Assembly: GCA_000004695.1 (NCBI GenBank)
Contig: CM000153.2
Location: 3,392,001-3,456,000 of the forward strand
Length of the DNA stretch: 64,000 nucleotides
Direction: 5' to 3'
Source: Dictyostelium discoideum
Taxonomy: Eukaryota
Positions 1 to 55,452 of this stretch are shown piece by piece. The translations under genes were made by a program, and so were the position numbers. Numbering within the stretch: position 1 is the stretch's first letter; each line of letters starts with the position of its first letter. The notes under the pieces are model-generated. The model worked only from the letters and a program-made list of their open reading frames with translations. It searched no databases and was not told where the DNA came from.

Positions 1-108
1 ATGGGGTTACCATCATTGAATAGTTGTCATCCATGTCCACCACCACGTCCAATTTGTCGTCCATGTCCACCACCACCATGTCGTCCAGTACCAAGATGTC
101 ATCATTAA
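1..108 (+). CDS. 3' terminal part (partial at window edge) of a small Cys/Pro-rich protein; paralog of the two complete copies at 571-861(-) and 1304-1774(+)
   Basis: Frame 1 is open from nt 1: ...[29 protein letters not shown], then TAA at 106-108. High nucleotide similarity to 1690-1774 and to the reverse complement of 571-660. Confidence 0.5.
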
Positions 109-570
109 AGTTTAAAATTAATAAATAGATCTTTAATATGTTTGGAATTTAAATAAATAATTTTTCTTTTTAAAAAATATATTCAAACACATTGAATTTG
201 ATTTTAGAAAATTTACTACCAATAAAACTAATGATAATAAAATTCTTTTATTAACAAAATTTATTATTAAACAGAAATATAGAATGTATTAGTGATGCTC
301 AAAAAACTGATGATTTAAAATATGTTAGAGAATGGGTTTATTCCTTTGTGAATCAATGTCCAATACATAATCCAACAGTTTTTTTTTTTTTTTTTTTTTT
401 TTTAATCCTAGTCCTAATTTGGGATGTGCCATTGTGACCACTAAATCCATTTTCAATTTATTTCAACAAAGTTTGCAGGGTAAATTAAAAAATATAATAT
501 TTAAAAAAAATAAAATTGCATAGGAAATTTATTTTTAATGAAATTTTTTTATTTTTATTAAAAATCTATT

Positions 571-861
571 TTAATATTTATAATGGCATCTTGGTTCTGG
601 ACGGCATGGTGGACATGGACGACAAATTGGACGTGGTGGTGGACATGGATGACAACTATTCCAATGGTGGTAACCCCATCCCGATGTTTCATTTGAACCA
701 AATGAACCACTTGAACTACCAGTTTCAATTGATGAAACACTTGATTTCAAAGAACCAGTGCTTAATGATGATAATGATGCTAATTTTTATAAATTATTTA
801 TTAATAAAAAAATAAATTTAAATTTTTTTTTTTTAGGAAAAAAACTTACAAAATAGGGTCA
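571..861 (-). CDS. Small (73 aa) Ser-rich N-terminus / Cys-Pro-rich C-terminus protein, 2 exons: join(861..849, 779..571)
   Basis: Exon 1 is ATGACCCTATTTT followed by GTAAGT (rc of acttac at 843-848). Acceptor AG is rc of ct at 780-781; exon 2 is in phase. Product [73 protein letters not shown]. Same architecture as the 1304-1774 copy. Confidence 0.55.
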
Positions 862-1140
862 TTTTAAAATTTTAATAGTTTCTTGTTTAAAAATTAGAGT
901 TTGATTTAATATTTTTTTTTTCTAATTTGGTTACAATTTATAGTTTTTTTTTTCTGAAAAAAAGAATAAAAAAACAAATAATTTTTTAATTTTATTTTTA
1001 AAATCATACTTTTTGTTTTTTCATTTCTATTTTTTTTTATATCAAAAAACTTAAACTCCCCCCCATTATATTTTTCTATTTGACTTGTTATATTATTTAT
1101 TCATAAATGATTACTTGTTATATTAATTATTATTATAAAT

Positions 1141-1186
1141 GGGGCCTTTGGATTTTGAAATATCAAGAATTCTTAAAATAAAAAAG

Positions 1187-1190
<4 letters not shown>
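1141..1190. repeat. 50-bp element GGGGCCTTTGGATTTTGAAATATCAAGAATTCTTAAAATAAAAAAGTCTT followed by poly(A); second copy at 2722-2771
   Basis: Near-identical 50-mer at two places (1 mismatch). Each lies 60-115 bp upstream of an ATG: 1304 for the small Cys/Pro gene, 2833 for the SDR pseudogene. Confidence 0.6.
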
Positions 1191-1229
<39 letters not shown>

Positions 1230-1303
1230 ATTCATAAAATTAAAAAACTATAAAAACAAAAAATCAATTTTTAAAATATTAATTATAAATCAAAAAAAAA
1301 AGC

Positions 1304-1774
1304 ATGAGTATTTTCAGTAAGTATAATTTTTTTAGAAATATTGTAAAACTCAGTAAAATTTGTCATAAATATTTTTAAAAATAATAATAAATAATTAATT
1401 ATAATTATTCCTACAAAATAAATGTTTTAATAATTAAACCACTTTGTTGATCCCCCTAACATGGTGAATTTCTTAATTTCGAAATTTTTGCTCAAATTTT
1501 CCTGTATTTTACAATATTTAAATAAATAAAATAAACTAAATTTAAACCCTTTTTTTAAATAAATATAGGTTCATTATCATCATTATCCACTGGTTCTTTG
1601 AAATCAAGTGTTTCTTCAATTGAAAACGGTAGCTCAAGTGGTTCATTTGGTTCAAATGAAACATCTGGATGGGGTCAACACCACTGGAATAGTTGTCATC
1701 CATGTCCACCACCACGTCCAATTTGTCGTCCATGTCCACCATGCCGTCCTGAACCAAGATGTCATCGTTATTAA
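1304..1774 (+). CDS. Small (72 aa) Cys/Pro-rich protein paralog, 2 exons: join(1304..1316, 1569..1774)
   Basis: ATGAGTATTTTCA then GTAAGTAT donor at 1317; intron to acceptor ...aaatatag (1567-1568); phase-1 junction. Product [72 protein letters not shown], stop TAA 1772-1774. The ORF-track entry 1608..1874 is the wrong frame of the same exon. Confidence 0.55.
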
Positions 1775-1940
1775 ATTTAATAAAGTTTTAAAAATAAATT
1801 TAACCTTTAAAAAAAAAAAGGTATTTTTAGAAAATTGGAAAAGTAGTATTAAAAATTTTTATTGTGTTTGTTAGAGAAAAAAAAATAGTATAAAATACTA
1901 ATAACCAAACAAAAAACAAATGTTTTTAAATATATTTAAA

Positions 1941-2600
1941 TTATTTTGAATTAAAGTCATAGTAAGAAACTTCACCATCAGAAAAACCAGCTAACATTGT
2001 TTCATCATCTATTGATAAACATTCTACGGGTGATAAATTATTAATGGTAGTTAAAAGGTTTGGTTCATTACTACCCTCTAAATTCCATAAACAAATTGAA
2101 TCTTCATCCCTTGTACACATACGTAAATTATTATAGATACTTATTGCTTTAACCTTTGAGGAATGAGATTTTATATTGTGGATGGCAGAACTTGGATTTC
2201 TGATATCCCACATTCTAATGGTCTTATCGCTTGAACCTGTAATCAATTGATAATCATTTAAAAAGTTGAGACAATTAACTGAACCTTTGTGACCATTGAG
2301 AACCAATTCAGTTTTATTTGAGTCTATATCCCATAGCTTAACAGTTTTATAAGTACATGCAATCATACAAAAGTTTTCAAACCTTCCAATTAAAATGATT
2401 AATTTTGGTGTTTTCAATTTCTATCATTTGCAATTCCTGTTCAGTTTCGCTATCATATAGCTTTACGGTATTACTTTCATAAGAGTAAATATCTCTTTTC
2501 ATGAAAATGAAACCATTAGAAACGTAGAGAAAACGTTGTTCTTTTTCAATTTCTTTGTAGCGATATTGTAATGTTGAATTGCACGATTTGAACAACCCAA
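1941..2600 (-). pseudogene. WD40-repeat protein gene fragment, broken into three overlapping frames (probable pseudogene or gene with unresolved very short introns)
   Basis: ORF 1941..2417 encodes WD repeats (TVKLWDI, GHKGSVNCLNF, SDKTIRMWDI, ICLWNL). Upstream continuation (YDSETEQELQMIEIENTKIN) is in a different frame, overlapping at 2377-2417. A 46-bp GTTTGA..AG intron could join them but is shorter and less canonical than other introns here. No credible start codon. Confidence 0.4.
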
Positions 2601-2707
2601 TCTAATGATACCATGCATAAATAAACAATATGAGAATATCTGTTGAAAGTTTAGTAAAATTATCCGTTTCAAATGAAATAACTGAACTTGCACCACATCT
2701 AGTTTAT

Positions 2708-2771
2708 GGGGGGGGGGGGGGGGGGCCTTTGGATTTTGAATTATCAAGAATTCTTAAAATAAAAAAGTCTT
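2708..2771. repeat. G18 homopolymer (2708-2725) fused to the second copy of the 50-bp element (2722-2771)
   Basis: 18 consecutive G, extremely atypical for this genome, immediately followed by CCTTTGGATTTTGAATTATCAAGAATTCTTAAAATAAAAAAGTCTT and poly(A). Confidence 0.6.
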
Positions 2772-2832
2772 AAAAAAAAAAAAAAAAAAATAAAAAAAAA
2801 ATTTAAATAAATAAATAAAAAAAAAAATTAAA

Positions 2833-3359
2833 ATGAATTCAATTGAAAATAAAAATAATAAAATTTGGTTAACCACTGGAACATCAGGTGGTAGAAATCA
2901 AAAATCAGGTTTAATAATTAACATTTCCTCCCAAATGGGTTGGGATAATACGCAAAATTTTTCAGCCTACAGTTCAACATAACACGTAGTTAATGCAATT
3001 ACATTATCAGCACAAAAAGAGTTAAACCATTTGGTGTAAATGTAATTTTAGTTAGTCCAGGTTGATTTAAAACTAGTTTCGTAGCTGGTCAACAATCAAA
3101 CTTTCAAGTACCTTCTAAATTAATTGATGAATATTCAACTCAATCATTCATTGATATGTTTAATAAATATTCAACATATTCAAAAGGTCATCCTGAAAAA
3201 GCAGCTGAACTCTTAATTAAATTACCAACAATCGAACAATTACCAAATAATTTATTCATTGGTTCTGGTTCATTATCAGCTGGTAAACAACAATTACAAT
3301 CACATTTATTAGAACCTGAAAAATGGTCTGAAATTTCAATTTCAGCTGGTTATTAAAAA
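2833..3359 (+). pseudogene. Short-chain dehydrogenase/reductase (SDR) pseudogene
   Basis: Starts MNSIENKNNKIWLTTGTSGG (remnant of the TGxxxGxG NAD(P)-binding motif), then jumps straight to the NISS motif, so ~100 codons are deleted. The catalytic motif reads SAYSST*HAVN with TAA where the conserved Lys codon should be. Downstream there is a 1-bp deletion in NHLGVNVILVSPGW and a TGG->TGA change. Only the C-terminal 66 codons (3156-3356) remain open. Confidence 0.6.
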
Positions 3360-3493
3360 TAAAAATCAAATAAAAATAAATAAACTTTTTTTTTTATTTT
3401 TTTATTTTTTTTTTGTAAATAAATAAAAAATAAAATAATAAATTTGGGAAATTCAAAATTTCGTTCGTTTTTCTTTTTCTATTTTTATTATTT

Positions 3494-3531
<38 letters not shown>

Positions 3532-3636
3532 TAATTTTAAAACGCACAACTGAGCGATTAAATTTTTTTTTTTTTTTTTTTTTTTTTTCCCAAACGCTAA
3601 CTGAAAACATTAGCACTAAATAATAATAAAAAGATT

Positions 3637-4818
3637 ATGTATGAGACAGAAGAAGACCCAACTACATCAAATGTAGCAACAACAAATAATGAAAAAACAG
3701 CATCAACAGCAGCAACAACAACAGAACCAGTTAAAAAAGTAACAGAATTTATGAGAGTTCAAAGATTATTTAGACAAGTTACAAAATCAGCAAATGGAAA
3801 GAATATACCTAAAGAAAAAAGAGAACCAATTGATTATTCACCAGTTTTAGATTTTCATAATTTAGAGAATAATACAGAAGAGAATAAAAAGTTAATAATT
3901 GATTGTACATCAAATGTAACGACCCATGATTTTGAATTCAATAGGGATACAGAGTTTTATTTACATCCAAGAGAATGGAAAGTTTATGGGTTACAAGGTT
4001 ATCCAGGATTTTATTTCATTAAATCACCATTTACAGCATCACAACAAAAGAAATGGATTAAACATGCATTAGAAGATTATGCAGATCCACCAAATAATAA
4101 CAATATCACCTTATTCCATGGTCCAATAAAGAATCTTTGGAAAAATGGTGAAAAAGAATTAATCAATGAAGAATTAAAGAGTCAAGGTAAACATGATGAT
4201 GATGAAATTGAACAACCAACAAGACCATTAGATAAAAATGGTGAACCATTACCAACCTATCGTCAACTTTTAGATAAATTAGCTTGGTCAACATTGGGTT
4301 ACCAATATCAATGGACACCAAGATTATATAGTGAGGAATTCTATGAGGAATTCCCTGACGATCTTCAAGAATTGGTTCAAAAGATTGCAATTGCAACTAA
4401 ATTCGATCCATATGTTGCAGAGGCCGCAACCGTTAATTTCTACTCTGAAGATTCAATTATGGGTGGTCATTTAGATGATGCCGAACAAGAAATGGAGAAA
4501 CCAATCATTTCAATTAGTTTCGGTAGTACTGCCGTATTTTTAATGGGTGCTGAAACTAGAGATATCGCTCCAGTTCCTCTATTCATTCGTAGTGGTGATA
4601 TAGTGATTATGGGTGGTAGATCAAGATATTGTTATCATGGTGTGGCTAAAATTGTTGAAAATTCTTTTGATCTTGGTTTAATCGATGAAAATGATGATCA
4701 AGATTTAAAATATAAAATTCAATGGTTAAAAGAAAAAAATAGAAGAGTTAATATAAATACAAGACAAGTTTTTAAAGTTCCAAAATTAGGTGGTAAATTA
4801 ATTAATAAAAATGAATAA
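3637..4818 (+). CDS. AlkB-family Fe(II)/2-oxoglutarate dioxygenase, ALKBH1-like (nucleic-acid demethylase)
   Basis: Single 393-aa ORF with real ATG. Conserved block [17 protein letters not shown]...[16 protein letters not shown]...[19 protein letters not shown] carries the HxD...H iron-binding triad and the Arg pair typical of AlkB/ALKBH1. Confidence 0.7.
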
Positions 4819-4933
4819 TAATTATTTAATAATTTTAAATTTATAATAAATTATTTTTGTATATTTATTATTTATATTTATTTGTTTAGAAAAAAAAAAA
4901 AAAAAAAAAAAATTTATAATTCTTTTTTATTAT

Positions 4934-6208
<1,275 letters not shown>

Positions 6209-6559
6209 TTTTTTTTATTTTATTATTTAATCAAAAATGAAAAAAGTTATTCGTTTTTTTTTTTTATGAATGAAAAAAAAAAACCTTTTTTTTTTTTTCA
6301 AATAAAATTTAATTTTAAATTTTTTTAAATTGTTATGCAATGGAAATTTTAAAAAAGTTATATATTTAATATGTATGGATTTAATTTTATTTTATTTTAT
6401 TTTTTTGGGAAAATTATTTTAAATCTAATTTCCAAAAAAATAATTAATTAAATATCACTAAAAAATGAGTTAGTTAAATAATTTTATTTATATAAAATTT
6501 TTTTATTTAATTTTTATTTATTATTTTTTTTTTATTTTTTTATTTTTTTTATTTTTAGT

Positions 6560-7972
6560 TTAATTTAATAATTTAATTGAACTTTCTCTAACTAATTGTA
6601 AGATTTCTTGTAATTCTTTTTTAGAGAAAATTGAATACCATCTGAATCTTTCATTTGCAATTTGATTGCATAATTGTGAACTCTTTTGAATTGAACCTAT
6701 ACCAACTAAAATTGTATATAATGATTTGAAAAGTGAAGGAATACATTTCTTTCTAATTAAAGTGACTTCATGACCACTTTGATCATCTTCACTGAATAGA
6801 CCAATTTGATTCTCCAAAGGACATAACCAACCAGTTTTAATGATAGAACGAATTGAAACGATAGCTTCTTTACCAAAGTTTATATTATTTTGATTCCATT
6901 GACCATAAACATCATCATATTCTTTCTTTCTTCTTTCAATATCTAATTTTTCAGCATATGATTCATTACCTCTTAATCTAAATGCAATTGATGAATTAAT
7001 TATTGAATTATTTATAATATTATTAAAACTATTATTATTATTATTTATATAATTATTATTATTATTTAAAGATTGTGGTAAATAATTTGAAATTTTTGGT
7101 TGATTTGAATAATTTTGTAACCAAAGATTAATACGAATATTTGCAGTTATATAATTTTCCCAATCTCTAAATTCTTTAATGATATTATTGGTATCGGATT
7201 CATTTAATGGACTTTGTTGTTTTGCAATCATTACAATATCTTTTGGTAATGATTTTAATAATTCACTTGCAGCACCATACTTATTCAAAGAGATGAAATC
7301 ACGAAGTAATAAATTCGATTGAAGTATTGCTTTAATTAATAATTGTTTTTCAAAGCATAACCATTGGATTGAATTAATTTTAACTAAATCATCTTGTGTT
7401 GTTATACTACTATCTTGATTAATAATTGTATTTGTTAAATTTGGTGTTGTGGTAGTGTTGGTGTTAGTAGTAGTTTCAGTTGTTGATGCTTTAGTAGTGG
7501 TAGTTGATTTATTCTTTGGTTGTTTATTTTTATTAATAGTTGTTGCAAATCCAGTGAATTCTAAATTTTCAAAAGAATTTGAAGTTGTATTAATTGAACC
7601 AGAAGTAATAGTTTTAACAACGGATTGAGCAATCTCTTGAGTATTTAAACCAAACTTTTCAGCCAATACTAATAATTGTTGTCTTTGATTTGGATCAATA
7701 ATATTAACTAAAAATCTAGAATAAACATCAACTTGTAATGATTCATTATTTAATAATGATGTATACAATGCAACCAATTCATATTGTTGACTATTAATTA
7801 AATGTTGAACATATTCATTGATAACTATATTCTCTGGACAATCTTCACTTGTTGATATTAATTCATATTGTTCTCTCTTTCTAAAAAATAAAATTAATAA
7901 TACTGCAAATCTATTAAATTCTGGTGTTTTATTTCTTTTTTTAAATAAAAAAAAAAAAAAAAAAAGAGTTAA

Positions 7973-8051
<79 letters not shown>

Positions 8052-9875
8052 AAACTTACTTTAATAATAAATTTGGTAATGAATTAAATAAAATTGAATA
8101 ATCATCAGCAATTATTAATTCTTGAATTTGATGATAAGGATTTTCAGATTGATTTTTAATTTCAATTTGAGAGGTATTATTTTTTAAAATTTCCAAGATA
8201 TCTTTTGGTGTATTAATTTGAGAGATACAAGTTGAAGGTGGTGAATCGATATCTTCTTCAATGGATAGAGGTGATCTGTAAGGTTTTAATTCACGATATA
8301 AAGATTCATCGTAGAGTACACGAAGATAACACCAAAAGTAGTCATACCAATTCTTTTGAATTGGTAGAGTTGCCTCTAAATTACCACATAACAGACCATA
8401 GATTGCACGTTCATATTGATCATTTGAATTCTTTGAGATGTTTAAACAATTGGATTTCCAGAGGTTGAAATAAGGATTACCAATACTATGCTCACCTTGA
8501 TAATAGTTCAACCCAATCAAAGTTTGTGCTCTCCAAAATTGGCCTACATTTGTGCAATATTCAGCAGCACCCACTCTATCACCAGCTCTAAGGAAACTCC
8601 AAACGGTTTTCAAGAATCTCGATTGATTCTTTTCATCATCTTTATCGATTGGTTTATTTTGACGCGACATTGCATCTGGGTCCAACTCTGACACCATTTG
8701 ATTATTGGTTAGCATTGTGATGGAATTGGATTTCTTTAATTTGATTAATGTGTACTCCCAAAATACTGCATCATTATCATTGAGTTCAACTTGTGATGAC
8801 ATCTCTTCTAACCATTCTAAAAGTATTAAATTCTCACGTAATTTATGATCTTTTTTAATTAAATAATTGTAAACTTGAACTTGATTAGGTTGAGAGATAT
8901 CAATCTTTTCCTTTTGATCAATACTTCTTTGTATATCCCTATACTCATAAAGTTTCTTTAAAATTGACCATGTATCTTTCTCCATTTGATAATTCTTTAA
9001 TTGTTGTTCTTTTTGTTTTCTATTATTTTGCATGTAAAATAATTTATTACTTTCATCATCATTTATTGAATTAATTCTATATATATATATATTTAAAATA
9101 GAGATATATTAGTTTTTTTTTTTTTTTTATATCTATCTATCTTCCTATATATTTATCTGTCTAACCCTCTTTCTTTCTCTCTCTCTATATATATATATAT
9201 ATAATGTAACTTACTTTGCTTGAGATAATTTTAAAAATGTATCAGATAATTCTATTGGTATTAAATGAGGATCATCATTTAATTTTGGTTGTAATTCATA
9301 TTCTAATGTATTATGATAAATGGTATCATCAGTTCTACTCTTATCATTAAATATATTATTGAATTGATTTTCATCTTCTTCCATTTCCATTTGATTATTT
9401 TGTAATTGTTGATTATCCATTTCAAACTCTTGTTCATTATTATTATTATCATTATCATTATTAACTTCCATATTATTATTGTTATTATTAATAGTATTAC
9501 CAAACAATGAATTACCAAATTGATTATTATTATTATTATTATTATTAAAATTAATTTGTGTATTTCCAAATATTCCTCCATCTCCTTTAACCAATGTATT
9601 ATTATTATTCATATTATTATTATTATTTACAATACCACTAAATTCATCTTCATTGTTATCATCTGGTAAAATACCTATAAATAAATAAAAAAAAAAAAAA
9701 AGTTTATTTTAAATTAGTTTTAGAGTAAAGGGGGAAATTATTATTATTATATATGCCTTGAAAACTTACTAAAGTCGAATTTATTATTATTATTAAATGG
9801 TTGTGTACTAAAAAAGTCATCATTATTGTTACTATTTAGGTTATTACCTAAATTCCATTTAAAATTTTCTGACAT
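6560..9875 (-). CDS. Nuclear pore complex protein, Nup107/Nup84 family, 4 exons: join(9875..9770, 9674..9215, 9076..8060, 7880..6560), ~967 aa
   Basis: Exon 3 contains the Nup107 signature SFLRAGDRVGAAEYCTNVGQFWRAQTLIGLNYYQ...GNPYFNLWKSNC. Exon 1 (MSENFKWNL...) ends at a GTAAGT donor (rc acttac 9764-9769). Exon 2 (rc of ORF 9211..9612 extended upstream) encodes an N/Q-rich, FG-containing N-terminus (GGIFGNT, NQFGNSLFGNT) and ends at GTAAGT (rc 9208-9214). Intron 2 is 9077-9214, with acceptor tatag. Intron 3 is 7881-8059, with donor rc acttac at 8054-8059, and contains an (AAAT)n repeat. All junctions keep frame with the ORF-track pieces 8056..9033 and 6560..7777. Confidence 0.55.
7971..8053. 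repeat. (AAAT)n microsatellite inside intron 3 of the nucleoporin gene
   Basis: About 20 tandem AAAT units. Confidence 0.85.
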
Positions 9876-9953
9876 TTTTATAGTTTTGTTTGATGAATAC
9901 CACACGTTTTCTTGAAACGATTGTGTCTATTATTCTTAAACGATGATCATCAA

Positions 9954-10006
<53 letters not shown>

Positions 10007-10162
10007 AAAATTTCATGAATGCTTTTTTCAAATTTTTTTTTTTTTATTTTTATTTTTTTTAAATTCCAATTATTATTTTTTTTTTTTTGCAACCAAATAT
10101 GGTTTTATTCCCGATAATTATTGAGATCCTGAAATCCTGAAATCCAAAACATTTTTTATTAA

Positions 10163-10308
<146 letters not shown>

Positions 10309-10387
10309 AGAATTTGATTTAATAATATTCTAAAATTTTTTATTTTTTCTTTATTTTTATACAAAAATCCAAAAAAAAAAAAAAAAA

Positions 10388-10511
10388 TTAAGAATTTTGT
10401 AATCTATTTCTATGAAGTTTGAGTTGTTGTGAAAGTTGTAAATCAATTGATTTTTGTTGTTCAATTTCTTGTTGTTCTATAGTTAAATTTGGATTAATTT
10501 GGTCTAATTCT

Positions 10512-10549
<38 letters not shown>

Positions 10550-13235
10550 TTCATCATTGCTTCCATCTATATAATAGAATTTATTAATCTTTTCTCTGCA
10601 AAAGAAGCAAGTATTCTTTGTTAATAAATGAAGGATAATACAATGATGACAAGATCTATGGTTACATGGTAAGAATTCAGTATCTTCTGTCGATGAATAG
10701 CAAATAGTACACATTTGTTCCTCTTCATCAGTGGTTATGATTTTATTTTTATTCTCTTTCTCTTCTTCATCATTTAAACGATTGATTGATTTAAAGAATT
10801 CTATTAATCTTTCCCTTACAATTGGATTCAAAACTTTGTCACTTTCAACTATATTTTTATTATTGCTTAATGAAGATGATGAAGAAGATGAGGATGAAGA
10901 TGATGAAGAAGATGAAGAAGATGAAGAAGATGAAGGCAATCGTAATGACGATGACGATGGATCATCGTTGTCTAAATTTTCAAGTAAGGTTATCATTAAC
11001 TCTCGGAAACTATCACTAATATCATCATTATTATCGTCATCGTCTTCATTTAATAGATTTAAAATTTCGTTTTCATTTTCATCTACATGTTCATCTACAT
11101 GTTCATTTCTTTCTAAAAGTTGTTGCTGTTGTTGTTGCTGTTGTTGAAGCTGCTGTTGTTGATGTCTTTGTCTTTGTTGATGAATTCGTTGTTGTTGTTG
11201 TGATTTTTTCTTTTCTTTTGGAAGTTGGTAGTTACTACCATTAAGTGGTAGTTCATCCAAAACTTTTAAAATTTCATCAAGTTCAATCTTTTTAATTGAT
11301 TTTGCGAACGAAAGTTTGGATTTTGGTTTATATTGACTGAAATAATAAATAGATGGTAATAACTTATAAAACAATTTAACAAATTTCATTTTTCCACCAT
11401 CTGAAACTAAACTAATCTTTTCGAATATATACAAATAAAATTGACCAGTTATCATTAAAAATGTTTCATCCTCTAAAATTGAATGTGCCATTTTTTTACT
11501 TAAATATGTCAATAACTTTTAAATAAAAAAAAAAAAAAAAATTAGTATTATTATTATTTTTATTAATAATTATTAATTATTAATTTATTATTAACATTTG
11601 TTATTATTTACTTACATGAATTAATTTTTTATTTTGTGGTATTTGTGCAAATAAACTTTTTAATAATTTTAATAAGTAAATTCCATGATCTTGAAATAAA
11701 TCTTCAATATAATTTAAAAATGGTGGTAAAGAAGCATCGAATAATATTGTGAAAATTGTTAAATCCCAAGTACCAAGATTGATGAATAAATCTTTAACCA
11801 TTGGTTGAAATGATGGTAAATTATGAACTAAAGCCAAAAAATTCTTTTTCTTTAAAAGTTCTGCAATTGCTAATAAAACCTTTTGTGAGACAGTTCTATC
11901 TACTATATGATTATTTGCACGAAACAATAAAGAGATAAAAGTAATAGTAGTTCTTAAATTGCTTGGATTTGTAAGTAACGATAAATCAGACACTGAAAAG
12001 TATGAAAACACTGAAATTGTAGTTGAAAAAAAGTGATCATAAATATAATTGAAATAATCCTTATTTGGATGTAAATACACTCTATTTAAAAATCTAACTA
12101 AAAATCTAAACATTAACCAAATATTATCTGTTGAAATCATCTCTTCACTAATCTCTTTTTTAAGTGATCTAAATCTTAATCCTTCAAAGCTTAATGCTTT
12201 CATTAATCGTTCCTAAAATTAATATATTAATTAGTATTATTATTTTATCTTTTTTTTTTTTTTTTTTTTTTATATTTATAAATACATACATGAGTTAAAC
12301 CCATAAAGAAATAATGTAATAAAGTTGTAGCATGAGAATCAATTTTTTCAAATTGTTTGCATATACTAATATCGAATAAATTGATTAGAATTTCCAATAA
12401 TGATAAAGTTTTATTATCAATTGTTTGATCTGTTGCTGCTGCTGCTGCTGTTGAGGAATCAATTAATGACGATGATGATTTAAAATTTGAAGTTTTTAAA
12501 AGATGAGAGAGTACACCACCTAATCTTTGTCTATTTGGTGAATCAAATTCTTTTGCAACTAAATAACTCATTGGTATTCGATCGACTTGTTTTTCATCTA
12601 AAAGGAATGGTTCTAAATATTCTGCCAACATATTGAAAAGACCAAATAAAAATGTGAATGGATATTCTTCATTTGGTTTACCACTTGCTTTGGATTTTTC
12701 ATGATTCAATTCTAAATTTACAATTCTAACTAACCAACTCTTTAATAGATCATATAAATCATTATCAAATAATGGATGCCCTTTACTTGTTAAACAAAAT
12801 TTAAGAATTTCTTTTTGAATTGATATTCTTTCTATATTGTTATCAAAATCTGATGTAGTTCTCTGTTTAAAAAAAAAAAAAAAAAAAAATTAGTAAATTA
12901 ATTTTTTTTTATTTTTTTTTTTTTTTTTATATGTATATACATACAACTTCTCTTGAAAAATTATCTTCGCTTACTAAAACTGATTCTCTTGAAAATATAT
13001 AATCTAAAATTAAAATATTATTATGATCTAATAAAAAGTATTGTAAAGTAACATTATTTTGTAAGAATCTAAAGAATAATTTTAATGGTTTAGTTGAAGA
13101 ATTTGGTGTTGGTCTACAATGTATTGTAATAGTTGAGAATATTTGCTTCATTAATGATATAAAAAGAGATTCCTAAAAATAAAAATAAAAAGTATTATTA
13201 TTATTTATTTTTCTAAAAATATCAAAATTTCCTAT

Positions 13236-13312
<77 letters not shown>

Positions 13313-14459
13313 TAATCTATATTTATAATATAATAATAAAAATAAAAATAATAATATTTACTGTTAAATTTAAATTCAAAGCTTCGATTATATCATCTAC
13401 TAAATTAAAATGTTGATAAAATGAAGAAACTAAAATTGATTCGACTGTATATAAAGTTAAATTTGAAACTAAAATTGGTGTTAACCAAGATAATATATCT
13501 CTATATCCTGATCCATAAATTGACTTTTTAAAAGTAAAAAAAAAAAAAAAAAAAAAAATCATTAATATAAAATGAATATTAAATTTCAAATAAATAATAA
13601 TTATAATTATAATTATAATTATAATAATAATAATAGTAATAATAATAATAATAAAATATATGATACATACTAAAATCTCTTTTGAACTTATTACTCTTAA
13701 AAATACAGATACTAAATATTGAACTCTATTTGAATTTTCTAAATTCTCTTCAACTATTGGTTTAAATCCTTTGATTTTAAATGCTAATGGTCTACCACCA
13801 AAATTTGGTTGTGCAACTGATGATTCCAATACAATATAAGGTATGTAAAATATTGTTGGCTCATCATTTTTAGTTTCTTCACCATTAGTTATAGTTTCAT
13901 TGTTACTACTACTATTATTATTATTATCATCATCATCATTATCTATATCTTTAATATTAATTGTAATTTCTTCTCTTGAGATTTCTTTACCATTTGAAAA
14001 GAATGATATTTTTGGTTTATATTTATTGGTAGCATCTATAGTGCATGTGAAAATGATACCATCGGGTCTTGGTATTGATAATTTTTTAACACATAATTTA
14101 ACGACTGTATAGGATTTGGGTAATAACTTTGGAAATGGTTTCTCTTTGGTTTTACATATTGCCCAACCAAAATTAAGTCCATTAGTTCTACTCGGTATTA
14201 AATCATACATCCACTTACCTGAACTAATTGGTCTCATCGTTGATGTAAAGACACCAAGTTTTGACATCTCTGGAAACAATATAGTCTTTGGTACATCATA
14301 TATCTCTTTAATTGGGTATTGTTTCTCTAAATATGCTATAAATGCTTTAAATACTTTTACTGAATCTCCAGCAAGTTGAATTGTAATATTGTTACCATTA
14401 TTATTTTTATTATTGTTATTATCATTGTCATTATCATTATCATTATAATTATCATTATA

Positions 14460-14540
<81 letters not shown>

Positions 14541-14627
14541 GTCTTTGTCTTTGGTATACAGATTTAAATCAATATCCAATCTATTTAATATATCAAAATT
14601 AAATATTTTTTTATATAAATAATCCAT
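10388..14627 (-). CDS. Large C-terminal RING (C3HC4) finger protein, putative E3 ubiquitin ligase; 6 exons: join(14627..13671, 13523..13362, 13172..12945, 12862..12290, 12212..11616, 11515..10388), ~1214 aa
   Basis: The ORF-track pieces 13323..14627, 12927..13151, 12245..12709, 11604..12203 and 10388..11512 are all on the minus strand. They connect in frame through GTATGT/GTAAGT/GTAAAT donors and AG acceptors. Introns are 13524-13670, 13173-13361 (contains (GAT)n), 12863-12944, 12213-12289 and 11516-11615. C-terminus has CTICYSSTEDTEFLPCNHRSCHHCIILHLLTKNTCFFCREKI (C-x2-C-x11-C-x-H-x2-C-x2-C-x9-C-x2-C), preceded by poly-Q, poly-S and acidic tracts. Real ATG at 14625-14627 with A-rich upstream. 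The N-terminal 1000 aa could not be assigned to a family. Confidence 0.5.
13236..13312. repeat. (GAT)n / (ATC)n microsatellite, intronic (RING gene intron 2)
   Basis: About 25 perfect ATC units on the plus strand. It lies between donor GTAAAT (13361) and acceptor ttttag (13173-13174), so it is predicted to be spliced out. Confidence 0.7.
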
Positions 14628-15429
14628 TTTTTAAAAATAAGTGGTTTGTGTATTTGGTTTACACTATATATATATGATATATATGTATATATATATTTTT
14701 TTTAAAAAAAATTTTAATGAACAAAACAAAAAAAAAAAAAAAAAAAAAAAAATTAATTAAAAAAAAATAAAAAAAATAAAAAATAATTTGTGAAAAAAAA
14801 AAAAAAAATTAATAAAAAAATATTAATATTGATAAAAATAAAAAATAAAAATATTCTCTTTTTTTTTTTTTTTTAAATTTTCTTTTTTTTTTTTTTTTTT
14901 TTAGTATATATAATTCTTTGGGAGAAGGTGAATCACTAGTGAAGAAGAAGAAAAAAGAAAACAATTAAAAAAGTTTTAAATTCAAATCAATATTAATCAA
15001 TAGCATCATTGACTAGTCATGATATCCATCAGTTAATAATACGATCACTTGAGTGAAAACTTTGAAATTTATATCAATCAAATCATGTGATTTCTTTATC
15101 ATTAAATGATAATTAATGGTAGCCAAGTACAATCAATACAGGTAATATTAATGTTTGTAAACAATAGATACAGAGATGATTACAACAACAACCATAATAA
15201 TTACATCAATAACGGTACCAACAACTACAATTACATTAATTGAAGCTAGCGTTAATAGTTCATTAAAGATTTGCTCAACATTATTTAATCCACCAAAATA
15301 GTAGTAAGTGGATCAACAATCAAAAAATCACCCCTTAAATTTTATGTAAATGTTGTTCAAAAAGTCAAATTTTAACAAATTATCCAAAATCAAATTCAAT
15401 GACGTAAAAATAGCAACAATAATAATAAT

Positions 15430-17584: not shown

Positions 17585-17925
17585 GTATAATTTTTTTTTA
17601 TTTATTTATTTTTTTTTATTTATTTATTTATTTATTTATTTACAAATTTTAAAATAATAATACAACATGTAATTTTTAAGAGTTATTTTTATTTTACAAA
17701 ATTATTAAAAAAAAAAAAAAAAAACAACAAAAAAAAAATTAGAAAAAAAAAAAAATAATAATAAAATGAAATCACTGAATTGTTTCAAATTATTTTTAAA
17801 AATAACCCCTACGGTTTTTATTATAACCATTTTGATCAAAATTTTTTTTTTTTTTTTTTTTTTTTTTCGAAGTAAAAAATAATAATAATACAACAGAATT
17901 GATTTAAAATAATCTCTTTTTAAAT

Positions 17926-21089
<3,164 letters not shown>

Positions 21090-21186
21090 TTTTTGTTTAA
21101 AAGGAAACTTTTTTTCTGATTTTAAATTTTATCGAAATGTATTAAGTGCATTTTTTTTTTTTTTTTTTTAAAAAAAATAAGGTCTG

Positions 21187-21242
21187 TTTTTTTATTTTTT
21201 ACAAAAACGACGGTTTTTTTTTATTTTTTACACAAACGACGG
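21187..21242. promoter_or_regulatory. Direct repeat of T-rich block + ACA(A/C)AAACGACGG, ~100 bp upstream of the FG-GAP/EGF gene start codon
   Basis: TTTTTTTATTTTTTACAAAAACGACGG (21187-21213) and TTTTTTTTTATTTTTTACACAAACGACGG (21214-21242). The GC-rich AACGACGG core stands out in the A/T desert. Confidence 0.35.
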
Positions 21243-21587
21243 TTTTTTTTTTTTTTTGTGACAAAGATATTTTTAAAAAATAAATATCTTTTATTTTGGT
21301 TGAATTTTAAAATAATCACATGATAATTTCTTTAAATTTTAATTTTTTTTTAAAAAAAAAAAAAAAAAAACAAAACTTTTATTTAAATAATCATTTTAAT
21401 TTTAAAACAAAAAAAAAAAAAATTAGAAAATAACTTTTGTAAATAAAAAATAATCTTTTTAATAAAATCAATCCAAAACATTATTTAAATTAAACCAAGA
21501 TAAAAAATTTTTAAAATAGATTTCTAATTTTCATAAAATAATATCCAACAATTTTTGACATTCGATCGTTTGCCAGATTTTCAAATG

Positions 21588-21639
<52 letters not shown>

Positions 21640-21751
21640 ATTGTTTTATAAAAAATTGGAAAATATCTTTTTCCATAAAATTTGTTATTTGATTAAATAT
21701 AATTACAACTTTATTTATTTATTTACAAATTTTAATACCATATTTTTTATT

Positions 21752-21789
<38 letters not shown>

Positions 21790-21813
21790 TTTTTTTTTTT
21801 TTTTTGTTTTTGT

Positions 21814-22983
21814 TTACTTATTGCTATCACTTCTAGCTCTTAAAAGTCTAACGAAAATATTTAAAATATCTAAAAAGAGATCAATTGAAACTCTAATGTA
21901 ATCTGGTTTACCTTCTTGAAAAGTTTTGACAGCATTGTGAGTATCTAAAGCAGTTAAACCAGTGAATAAAGCAAGACCAAAATAGAGATCAAACTCTTGA
22001 GCGAAACGGGTGAAAGTATTCTCACCCATCATTATTGAAGTACCAATTGAAACCAAACCCAATCCGAAAAGACCAAACAAGCTACCATAGAGTATTGGTT
22101 TATATTTGGTTAAACTATCAGGTTTCATCTTTAATGCAGCAAAAGCACTACCACCAGTAACGAATACACTTAAAGCTGCGACCCCCAAAACTGTAGATAC
22201 TGGTAGTAATCCGAAAGCGGGTGATAGTGAAATTCCATTGAATACACAAAATGAAACGAATGCCATTTTATGTAACGTTGAATAATTGGCAACTGTAATT
22301 GGTATAACCGATTTACTGAATTCTTCAAACTCTATTACACTTTTACCACTTTTATCAACACTTTTTAAAATTGGTTTCTTTACACTATTATCCAATGGAC
22401 CATCCCAAATGGTGTCATAAGTTGTATATGTAGGTTGTTGCATATTGCAAAGTATTAAGGACAACATTGATCCGCCAACTCCCAATCCCAATGCGGTTGG
22501 CAACGATTGCGGACTACCGACCATCAATTGGGAAAATATTAAACCTGATAAAATTGTACCAGCGAATGCAATTGCAGTTGTAATATAAACATTCTTTAAA
22601 AATAATTTTAAACCAATATTTGTTTTAATTAAATGGAAATAATCATCATAATCTTTTTTTAATAATAAAAAATTACTATCTTTAATTATATCCGAAAAAG
22701 ATGGATTTCCGAATGGTGTTGTTTTACCATAATTTCTATTATTTAAAAAATTATTATTTTTAAAATAATTTTTATTTGAAATTAAATTATATTTATTTTT
22801 AAAATTTAATAAGGTATTATTATTACTATTAATATTAATATTATTATTATTATTATTATTACTAAAAAATTTATTATTATTATTGACTTCACCAACAATA
22901 ATATTATTATTAATTGGTAGTTGTGTTAAATTTAAATAATTCTTTTTAATTTTTAGAATGTTACGAAAATTTGAACTTAACAT
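21814..22983 (-). CDS. Bax-inhibitor-1/TMBIM family protein, GHITM (TMBIM5)-like, probably mitochondrial
   Basis: 389-aa single ORF, real ATG. N-terminal basic/hydroxylated presequence-like MLSSNFRNILKIKKNYLNL, poly-N linker, then 7 predicted TM helices. C-terminal BI-1 family signature ...DTHNAV...DYIRVSIDLFLDILNIFVRLLRA. Confidence 0.6.
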   Translation of the reverse strand: MLSSNFRNILKIKKNYLNLTQLPINNNIIVGEVNNNNKFFSNNNNNNNININSNNNTLLNFKNKYNLISNKNYFKNNNFLNNRNYGKTTPFGNPSFSDIIKDSNFLLLKKDYDDYFHLIKTNIGLKLFLKNVYITTAIAFAGTILSGLIFSQLMVGSPQSLPTALGLGVGGSMLSLILCNMQQPTYTTYDTIWDGPLDNSVKKPILKSVDKSGKSVIEFEEFSKSVIPITVANYSTLHKMAFVSFCVFNGISLSPAFGLLPVSTVLGVAALSVFVTGGSAFAALKMKPDSLTKYKPILYGSLFGLFGLGLVSIGTSIMMGENTFTRFAQEFDLYFGLALFTGLTALDTHNAVKTFQEGKPDYIRVSIDLFLDILNIFVRLLRARSDSNK

Positions 22984-23703: not shown

Positions 23704-27613
<3,910 letters not shown>

Positions 27614-27728: not shown

Positions 27729-27998
<270 letters not shown>

Positions 27999-53106: not shown

Positions 53107-54377
53107 CTAATTATTATTACCATAATTAATATTATTGTTGTTGACAAAATTATTATTATTGTTATTATTATTATTATTATTATTACTATTATTTCTATTG
53201 TTATTTTTGTTGTTTCTACTATTGCTATTTCTATTACTGCTATTCCTGTTTACATTATTATTATTATTATTATTATTATTATAAATATTATTATTATTAT
53301 TGAAATCATTTTGTCTTTTAATTTCAATTGATTCTAATTCTTTATAGAGTTCGTATTCTCTTGGTGTTAAAGAGGAGGGAGTTGGAATATCTATGACAAA
53401 GTTAACACGACAAGATCCAGTTTTTCCACCTTTTGAATCCTTAAAACCTAAATTTGGTATGGTTGTATAGTAGTTATCATGTTTATTATTTACATCTGAG
53501 AATGGTGGAATTGTGATACGATGTTGTTTACCATATATAGTGATGATATTTATAGATGCACCAAATATCGATTGAGTTACACCAATATGTGTATTGATAA
53601 TAACATCATTTGAATTTGGAATTCTCATAAATTGATCACTGTTTTCAACTCTCATTATTGCTGTTATACGATATTCGTCCATTGTCGATTGATTGAAATT
53701 TACTGAAAATTCTAATTCTTGTTTCTCTTTATCTTTTATACCTGCCGGTATTAATAGTTCATCTCTAACCATACTTTTAATTTGACCACTTCCGTTACAT
53801 TGACTACAATTATTATTGTTATTATTGTTATTGTTATTATTATTATTATTGTTATTATTATTACCATTTGGTAAATTTGAGGATGACGAATTTGGAGTTA
53901 TTGGTGGCGATGAACCTGATGATGATATTGGTTGAATTTTTGTACCTTTACCTTCACAATCTCTACATGTAAAACCTGAAAATACACCACTTCCATTACA
54001 TAAATCGCATGATATTATTTTAACTTTATTTCCACTATTTATTCCTCCATTATTACCATTGCTGACTCCACAATTATTACTACTATCTCCGCCATTACTA
54101 CTAATATTTCCATGACATTGATTACATTCCCTATATACTGGTATTGATAATTGTTTTTCACAACCAAAAACACTCTCCCTAAAAGTAACATCAACAACTA
54201 CCTTTTGTTTAAAAACACTCGGTGCTCTATTCGATGTTGGGTATAACAATGAATCAATAGGCGATAAAGGTGGAGAAAAAGAGGGTGATGGTGGTTGTGA
54301 TGCCCTATTATTTATATTATTATTACTATTACTATTACTATTGATATTACTATTACCATTGCAAGTATTGCTGTTGC

Positions 54378-54474
<97 letters not shown>

Positions 54475-55452
54475 GTTGTTATTATTGTTGTTATTATTGT
54501 TGTTATTTCCATAGTTATTACCATGGCTATTATATAAATTAGCATTATTATTGCTATTAATATAATTGTTATTGTTATTATTATTGTTATTATTATTGTT
54601 ATTATTGTTATTATTGTTATTATTGTTATTATTGTTATTATTGTTATTATTGTTATTATTGTTATTATTGTTATTGTTATTATTATTGTTGTTGTTATTA
54701 TTGTTATTATTGTTGTTAAAACCATTCATATTATTGATTTGTCTTCTATGCATTGCATGAATATGTTGAACAGTGTCATGCATACTATTATGAAAAGAAA
54801 AAGGGTCAGAGAATGAAGAATGCATTTGTTGATGCATATTATGGTGATGTTGATTTAGATGGGCTTGGTGAATGTTGTGGTGATGTTGTGAATGAGAGTT
54901 TGAAAACATAAAAGGTGAACCAAAGGGTGGAGGTGGAGGTGAAGGTGAAGGTGAAGGAGTTGTATGTGTAAAGAAATTTGAAGAACTAGCTTTAAAGAAT
55001 TGATTAAATATATCAAAGAAATTCGAACGTCCAAATTGATTATGCTGACTAAAGAATTGATCGAAATTATCGAAATTATTGTTATTATTATTATTGTTAT
55101 TGTTATTATTATTGTTGTTGTTATTATTGTTATTATTACTACTACCACCACCACCACCACTACCACCACTATTATTATTACTACTATTATTATTATTTCC
55201 TCTATTTCTATTATTTCTATTAAATAAAAGATTATCATATTCATATTTCTTTTCGGAATTGGATAATATTGAATATGCTTCTGTAATTGATTTAAATTTT
55301 TCTTCAACATCTAATTCGTTACCGATATTTCGATCAGGGTGATATTTTAGTGCTAATCTTTTGTATGCTTTTTTTATAACTTCAACATCTGTAACTGTTC
55401 TTTCAATTTCTAAAATTAAGTAATAATCTGGTAGTTCATTATTATAGTTCAT
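53107..55452 (-). CDS. DnaJ/Hsp40 type-I co-chaperone (J domain + Gly/Asn-rich region + CxxCxGxG zinc-finger + C-terminal substrate-binding domain), heavily expanded with poly-Asn/His tracts
   Basis: Single 781-aa ORF, real ATG. J domain [34 protein letters not shown]. Zinc-finger repeats [33 protein letters not shown]-terminal [21 protein letters not shown]. The exact C-terminal end is uncertain because of the terminal low-complexity tail. Confidence 0.7.

Follow-up and report, generated by a model that had tools for sequence, protein, structure and literature searches.

The first 1,774 positions of the 64-kb stretch of Dictyostelium discoideum DNA analyzed here (the window) lie on chromosome 4 and carry two intact, divergent genes, referred to as copies B (DDB_G0285567) and C (DDB_G0285569), together with the 3' end of a defunct third copy, A. 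Both genes belong to the beiE clade of the sigN/hssA/2C/7E family, which encodes small, developmentally regulated proteins. Copies A and C read on the forward strand and B, between them, on the reverse strand, so that B and C stand head to head. The three stretches encoding the family motif in these 1,774 positions are the only ones in the window. The features are as follows.

1..108, forward strand: 3' end of copy A, a pseudogene remnant in which the family tail is encoded only out of frame with the sequence upstream in the same copy
571..779, reverse strand: exon 2 of copy B, stop codon (573..571) included
780..849, reverse strand: intron of copy B, 70 nt, phase 1, GTAAGT...TTAG, 7% guanine plus cytosine (GC)
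850..862, reverse strand: coding part of exon 1 of copy B, ATGACCCTATTTT, encoding M T L F plus the first base of codon 5
1304..1316, forward strand: coding part of exon 1 of copy C, ATGAGTATTTTCA, encoding M S I F plus the first base of codon 5
1317..1568, forward strand: intron of copy C, 252 nt, phase 1, GTAAGT...ATAG, 17% GC
1569..1774, forward strand: exon 2 of copy C, stop codon (1772-1774) included

Joining 862..850 to 779..571 gives a coding sequence of 222 nt and a protein of 73 amino acids for copy B; joining 1304..1316 to 1569..1774 gives 219 nt and 72 amino acids for copy C. The products match exactly the D. discoideum AX4 proteins of DDB_G0285567 (P0001, XP_638130.1, Q54N13) and DDB_G0285569 (P0002, XP_638131.1, Q54N12), both encoded on one 5.45-Mb record, and the spliced lengths equal the feature lengths tabulated in PMC8808424. 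Unspliced read-through of B meets a stop after 9 codons (9-24 codons across B and C). In a window of 22.5% GC overall, composition steps from 40-46% in the exons to 7-17% in the introns and 13-18% in the spacers, and these sharp steps mark the exon/intron boundaries. An AATAAA lies 5-12 nt 3' of each stop codon. Exon 2 and the last ~14 nt of the intron are 92% identical between B and C, which cannot be aligned elsewhere. The splicing of both genes rests on annotation, conservation among six copies of the family and family-level cDNA evidence, and we hold the identity and gene structure given here with high confidence.

An earlier note on this DNA, made from the letters alone, had proposed three paralogous genes for 72-73-residue products, each with a shared 13-nt first exon and an intron interrupting codon 5. 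All of this holds for B and C, which splice into proteins matching annotated ones, but not for A, which has no first exon in the window and is a pseudogene remnant. The accompanying label 'split-start-codon' was a misnomer: the ATG is intact, and it is codon 5 that the intron splits. The first exon of B had been placed one base off, at 861..849 rather than 862..850. The open reading frame (ORF) track, which had been faulted for mis-framing the copies, is in the correct frame for B and C; its calls begin at an internal TTG, leaving out exon 1.

Copy A is a dead copy, not a gene. In a three-copy alignment it lacks one nucleotide, a G in the Trp44 codon TGG, that every other copy has, so that the family frame ends in a TGA at 17-19; the apparent start codon at position 1 is an ATG formed by chance within GGA TGG GGT. 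The upstream part could be followed in a locus of assembly GCA_054883475.1 (L004), obtained by look-up with the neighboring single-exon gene (window 3637-4818), which is 99.78% identical to window 1-14834 and reaches 6.4 kb further upstream. Copy A has a TAA at codon 17 there in place of Ser17, no first exon of the ATG-plus-GT kind and no promoter were found upstream of it in L004, and on that side it abuts the 3' end of a large adh_short/EGF gene.

Membership of B and C in the sigN/hssA/2C/7E family, to which the HssA/B-like and UPF0512 proteins belong, follows from a published hallmark. Among 96 sigN-like genes, all with products of <120 amino acids, 89 have a 13-nt ORF in the first exon, a single intron and the rest of the ORF in exon 2 (Vicente 2008, PMC2257962). 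B and C have this 13-nt coding exon 1 and a single intron, of phase 1, as do four further copies at other loci (L002, L001B, L001A and L003, all with the same 13-nt exon 1 as copy B), and their products of 73 and 72 residues are below the 120-residue limit. The N-terminus, M-[TSA]-[IL]-F-x-S-[IL]-S-S-[IL]-S and then a Ser-rich stretch reaching to a GWG motif, is common to them and the family, as are expression confined to development and an arrangement in clusters and head-to-head pairs; duplication of such pairs as units has been proposed for the sigN-like genes (PMC2257962). B and C have an empty product field in the tables of Kin 2018 (PMC6198379); beiE (DDB_G0276687), which falls into the same 90%-identity cluster and to which B is 99% and C 93% identical over full length, was labeled hssA/7E/2C related both there and in Forbes 2022 (PMC9117722). 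The relation to HssA/2C/7E that the earlier note had offered as unverified is thereby borne out, both by the first-exon hallmark and by the naming of the 99%-identical beiE.

The two genes differ from canonical members in their C-terminal half. In canonical proteins this half is Gly/Cys-rich, e.g., ...GGCGGGCGGGSN...RRCC; the beiE clade has a Pro/Cys/Arg/His tail instead, and the Gly/Ser/Cys-rich C-terminal half typical of sigN, hssA and UPF0512 proteins is not found in B and C. The timing differs also: canonical members are on from ~10 h in prestalk cells, and the beiE clade only at the very end, in cup cells. The Pfam model for the hssA family, PF05710 ('Coiled'; gathering cut-off 21.4 bits), matches residues 1-37 in 10 of the 10 cluster members, at or just under threshold (best E-value 3.5e-4). 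A BLASTP comparison of C with a canonical neighbor of related copies at another locus, L001, likewise aligned residues 1-37 only (45% identity, not significant by itself). Judged by sequence, then, the clade has the N-terminal module and gene architecture of the hssA family and a C-terminal tail of its own.

Locus L001 (assembly GCA_054859355.1) contains an intact, convergent pair of A-like and B-like copies beside three canonical genes of the hssA/UPF0512 type. The latter have the same 13-nt first exon and encode proteins beginning MAIF or MSIF and containing ...GGCGGGCGGG...RRCC. Features in this stretch of A-like, B-like and canonical genes are the following (L001 coordinates).

11966..11600, reverse strand: feature of the stretch
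12276-12630, forward strand: feature of the stretch
13712 onward, forward strand: feature of the stretch

This adjacency links the Cys/Pro-tailed clade physically to the classical family. PF05710 scores within L001 span the threshold: the B-like copy (22.5 bits) and one canonical neighbor (26.7) pass, and another canonical neighbor reaches only 14.4. L001 was rejected as an orthologue of the window locus, as only a 1.2-kb A-B block aligns (85%) and nothing in the window matches the 9 kb that follow in L001; the called upstream genes also differ between L001 and L004. Since the A-B block is all that is shared, L001 was treated as a paralogous or rearranged locus, and the 1.2-kb block seems, from these alignments, to have moved or been duplicated as a unit.

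Published transcript data place both genes in cup cells. B and C fall, with the profile of their paralogues, into cup-specific k-means cluster 6 of Kin 2018 (BMC Genomics 19:764, PMC6198379, supplement 5). In transcripts per million (TPM), DDB_G0285567 stays at ≤1.5 before 24 h and reaches 430 in the hr24 sample; among cell types it stands at 0 in prestalk and prespore cells, 31,877 in cup cells, 493 in spores, 96 in stalk and 4 in vegetative cells. The corresponding values for DDB_G0285569 are at most about 7.5 before 24 h, 986 at hr24, 0-0.5 in prestalk and prespore cells, 33,706 in cup cells, 553 in spores, 175 in stalk and 4 in vegetative cells (PMC6198379). Transcripts are thus absent until the last hours of culmination and then burst in the cup. 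The eleven AX4 paralogues sum to ~312,000 TPM in cup cells, ten of them being high and DDB_G0276685 reaching only 82 (PMC6198379); the sum is approximate, because multi-mapping and length normalization influence TPM values when short paralogues are near-identical. A beiE promoter-lacZ fusion stains the upper and lower cup (PMC6198379), and Forbes 2022 lists beiE as cup-specific, found in D. discoideum only, hssA-related and without a domain (PMC9117722). B and C share both the gene structure and the profile of the beiE clade (hr24 only, >30,000 TPM in cup) and are members of it.

The transcription factor Cdl1A is needed for cup cells and for many cup genes (PMC8808424). Fruiting bodies of cdl1a- have no cup cells, and in them each of the two genes gave 0/1/0 reads, vs 1/17/3 (B) and 2/31/7 (C) in wild type; the log2 fold changes of -4.4 (B) and -5.3 (C), with adjusted p values of 0.38 and 0.08, amount to a trend only (PMC8808424).

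The 90%-identity cluster containing B and C comprises ten distinct sequences, all from D. discoideum and 90-99% identical to B. Eleven AX4 genes account for nine of them; the tenth (P0009) is from a different D. discoideum assembly. The presence of eleven AX4 genes in one such cluster agrees with a recently duplicating family; the earlier note had suspected rapid duplication. Relatives outside the family were sought in three ways. Whether the complete protein or its N-terminal 46 residues served as the query, a word-indexed search of 5.8 billion clusters yielded nothing but the cluster of the family itself; an exhaustive phmmer search of 1.84 billion representatives returned, beyond the family, only three tandem-repeat junk proteins; and a search of PDB sequences returned only antibody light-chain noise. 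On the strength of these searches the clade appears confined to D. discoideum. Absence from the proteomes of other species is weak evidence, however, because tiny two-exon genes of this family are under-annotated: the gene calls of GCA_054883475.1 omit B and C even though L004 6954-7245 and 7684-8150 are identical in sequence to window 571-862 and 1304-1774. No assembled RNA-seq record turned up in look-ups with the exact products P0001, P0002, P0008 and P0010.

The Nei-Gojobori method was applied to six full copies, namely window B and C, L002, L003 and the A-like and B-like copies of L001. The ratio of nonsynonymous to synonymous substitution rates (dN/dS) was 0.05-0.51 in 15 of the 15 pairs, with dS of 0.04-0.31. 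Ratios below 1 throughout argue, at the level of sequence comparison, that the protein matters and that the clade is under protein-level constraint. Splice sites and reading frame are kept in all six copies despite diverged introns and flanks. Differences in tail length are whole CCA codons; CCA-codon slippage varies the number of Pro residues before the fifth Cys from 2 to 4, and the six Cys residues are invariant across the ten cluster proteins. Residue 41 (codon 658..656 in B, 1677-1679 in C), can be Y, Q, N, H or S, whereas the GWG before it and the HHW after it are invariant. Read on the opposite strand, the CCA runs correspond to a frame-shifted GGT run. Derivation of the Pro/Cys tail from a canonical Gly/Cys tail by inversion or frameshift was considered and rejected, since local alignments scored no higher than after codon shuffling, the antisense score being reached by 324 and 307 of 500 shuffles.

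The promoters and introns of the six copies fall into three types, between which only low-complexity matches occur. B-type copies (window B, L002, L001B) are 91-96% identical over ~320-355 nt upstream and A-type copies (L001A, L003) 90% identical over 365 nt upstream; the C-type promoter is that of window C. Copy C represents an MSIF...CHRY subtype of the beiE clade, whose intron and proximal promoter cannot be aligned with those of B-type and A-type copies. Two features lie between or beside the start codons of B and C.

863..1303: B/C spacer, 441 nt, 13% GC, between the two start codons
1141..1221, forward strand: 81-nt element, GGGGCCTTTGGATTTTGAAATATCAAGAATTCTTAAAATAAAAAAGTCTT / GGGGCCTTTGGATTTTGAAWTATCAAGAATTCTTAAAATAAAAAAGTCTT plus an A run, at the distal edge of the ~350-nt B-type promoter block

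The only run of at least five G or C bases in the spacer is C7 at 1058-1064 (G7 on the B sense strand), near its middle. Each of the five B-type and A-type promoters has a G6-7 run at -192 to -202 relative to the ATG, and the same box is at -246 for C. From the head-to-head geometry and the position of this run, we infer that the 441-nt spacer is a bidirectional promoter shared by B and C, and the G-box at 1058-1064 is a putative regulatory site. By its title, as cited, Shimada 2008 describes the hssA family as GBF-dependent.

The 81-nt element is 96% identical to a solo direct copy at window 2722-2801, 1.5 kb downstream, and recurs upstream of B-type copies in L001 (11376-11408), L002 (3683-3715, reverse strand) and L004 (7528-7560; also 9102-9134); no such matches are expected by chance. 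It could be the 3' end of a retroelement or a duplication boundary. The solo copy is preceded by a run of 18 G residues (2708-2725), very unusual in this genome, and copy C and a WD40 fragment sit between the two direct copies.

That fragment, of 194 residues, appears to belong to a patchwork of partial gene duplicates just downstream of C (window 1935-2612, reverse strand, and 2826-3349, forward strand). The patchwork also holds a piece that resembles a short-chain dehydrogenase and has internal stops; it shares 93% identity with the 5' part of the large adh_short/EGF gene lying immediately before the window (L004 2410-6095), a gene with a ~90% paralogue inside the window (about 17767-22016, reverse strand). 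Long codon repeats of the AAT/AAC type (poly-Asn in ORFs) at 5236-5391, 24796-24921, 27777-27965 and 54371-54486 cross-match each other and L004; they are typical of the genome and unrelated to the present genes.

The encoded protein is ~7.9 kDa with an isoelectric point (pI) of 8.6. Residues 1-40 are acidic and 40% Ser; the tail, from residue 41 to the end, has a pI of ~9 and contains about 10 Pro, 6 Cys, 4-5 Arg and 4 His; trypsin would yield few useful peptides from it. AlphaFold2, run on a ten-sequence alignment, gave a mean predicted local distance difference test score (pLDDT) of 59, a predicted template modeling score of 0.17 and essentially no regular secondary structure; pLDDT was somewhat higher in the tail (74-80), yet there too almost no regular secondary structure was present. 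The protein is accordingly predicted, by this model, to be disordered. The 9-residue Kyte-Doolittle maximum is 1.1-1.2 at residues 5-7, Leu and Phe being interspersed with Ser, so that on this scale alone the N-terminus lacks a hydrophobic core of signal-peptide strength. The table in Forbes 2022 records a signal peptide for some other genes and none for beiE (PMC9117722).

For the role of the protein we tentatively propose the following. The near-identical copies may be kept for output, i.e., for dosage, and the product would act as bulk protein inside or close around the cup cells, which keep the spore mass on the stalk. The proline-stiffened tail with its six Cys residues would be the working part, through disulfide or metal-mediated cross-linking; this tail-based role is a possibility that we put well short of an even chance. 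Animal keratin-associated proteins, small proline-rich proteins and the sperm mitochondrial capsule protein are likewise small and Cys/Pro-rich, with tandemly amplified genes and very high output in terminal differentiation. They have no sequence relationship to the beiE clade and belong to different organisms and a different cell biology, so that the likeness is analogy only. Within the organism, SRCP1, which suppresses polyglutamine aggregation, has 88 residues and is not known to have a Cys/Pro tail. It is a small Ser-rich D. discoideum protein of the same large class of developmentally regulated small proteins (PMC8554618).

Several observations weigh against B and C being hssA-family genes whose proteins work in the cup. 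No splice-junction reads or cDNA were seen for either gene, and the approximate nature of the TPM sum has been mentioned. PF05710 scores B at 20.2 and C at 18.5 bits, under the 21.4-bit cut-off. No protein-level detection was found; in the portion of the 2026 life-cycle proteome tables covered, beiE occurs only in a STRING edge list, which is uninformative. Moreover, a frame-shifted hssA construct still suppressed a STATa hypomorph, suggesting an RNA effect, as summarized in PMC6198379. As proposed for hssA, the transcripts of the clade might therefore act as RNA, the encoded peptide being irrelevant, and their extreme abundance together with the lack of peptide evidence found fits this idea. 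We nevertheless consider it improbable: dN/dS is <1 in 15 of 15 comparisons and synonymous changes outnumber replacements in most pairs, tail indels are always whole codons and the six Cys are invariant in ten proteins, and the only copy that has lost its frame (A) also lacks exon 1 and promoter. That B and C are chance ORFs or repeat debris might be suspected of short, low-complexity sequences in very AT-rich surroundings that the annotation of GCA_054883475.1 leaves out, but this has next to no chance of being right, given exact identity to curated AX4 models, >30,000 TPM each (PMC6198379), the sharp composition steps between exon and intron, and the conservation of splice sites and frame in six copies with diverged introns and flanks.

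If the protein is what matters, functions other than cross-linking come into question. Inside terminally differentiated cup cells its Cys and His residues might chelate Zn or Cu, or absorb oxidants, so that it would buffer metals or redox state. The pattern C-x2-C-x6-C-x2-C-x2-C-x5-C-H, with six invariant Cys and four His, and the want of an evident signal peptide would suit such a function, which we regard as unlikely in view of a Cys content of only ~8% (6 in 72-73 residues), the presence of several Trp, Tyr, Phe and His and of abundant Pro (aromatic residues and much Pro being atypical of metallothioneins), the lack of any Pfam metallothionein or zinc-finger match at E up to 10 (PF05710 being the only match), and the lack of a compact AlphaFold2 fold. 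In Cys content, aromatic residues and the absence of a model match, B and C do not fit the metallothioneins. Somewhat less likely again is a defensive peptide released by cup cells, whose cationic Pro/Arg/Cys-rich tail would guard the spore droplet against microbes. In its favor, the tail has a pI of ~9 and combines 4-5 Arg and recurring RP/PRP motifs with a conserved scaffold of Cys, and the protein varies at residue 41 and at the C-terminal end. The family is restricted to one lineage, has many copies and turns over fast; cells bounding the sorus express it while spores mature and afterwards (PMC6198379); and two paralogues carry the Gene Ontology label 'extracellular region' (evidence type unspecified). 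This reading rests on resemblance, however. There is no hydrophobic signal-peptide core (Kyte-Doolittle maximum 1.2) and no signal peptide listed for beiE (PMC9117722), Pfam, phmmer and PDB searches gave no match to a known antimicrobial family, and dN/dS gave no sign of positive selection.

B and C themselves are already known: both are annotated genes, the 13-nt exon architecture was published in 2008 and the cup-specific clade in 2018. The practical lesson is that ORF tracks, and one recent automatic annotation, miss short two-exon genes of this kind. What stands out biologically is the output of these genes, some ten in number and near-identical, which in one terminal cell type comes to ~0.31 million TPM. 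Cup cells are an evolutionary novelty of the group-4 dictyostelids. It is conceivable, if rather unlikely, that the Cys/Pro tail is a young addition, restricted to D. discoideum, to the old N-terminal module of hssA, and that the family was afterwards amplified to some ten active copies for a cup-specific role of the tail, either as disulfide- or metal-cross-linked material that holds the sorus or as a released antimicrobial coat of the spore droplet. If true, this would be a case of lineage-specific gene birth tied to a lineage-specific cell type.

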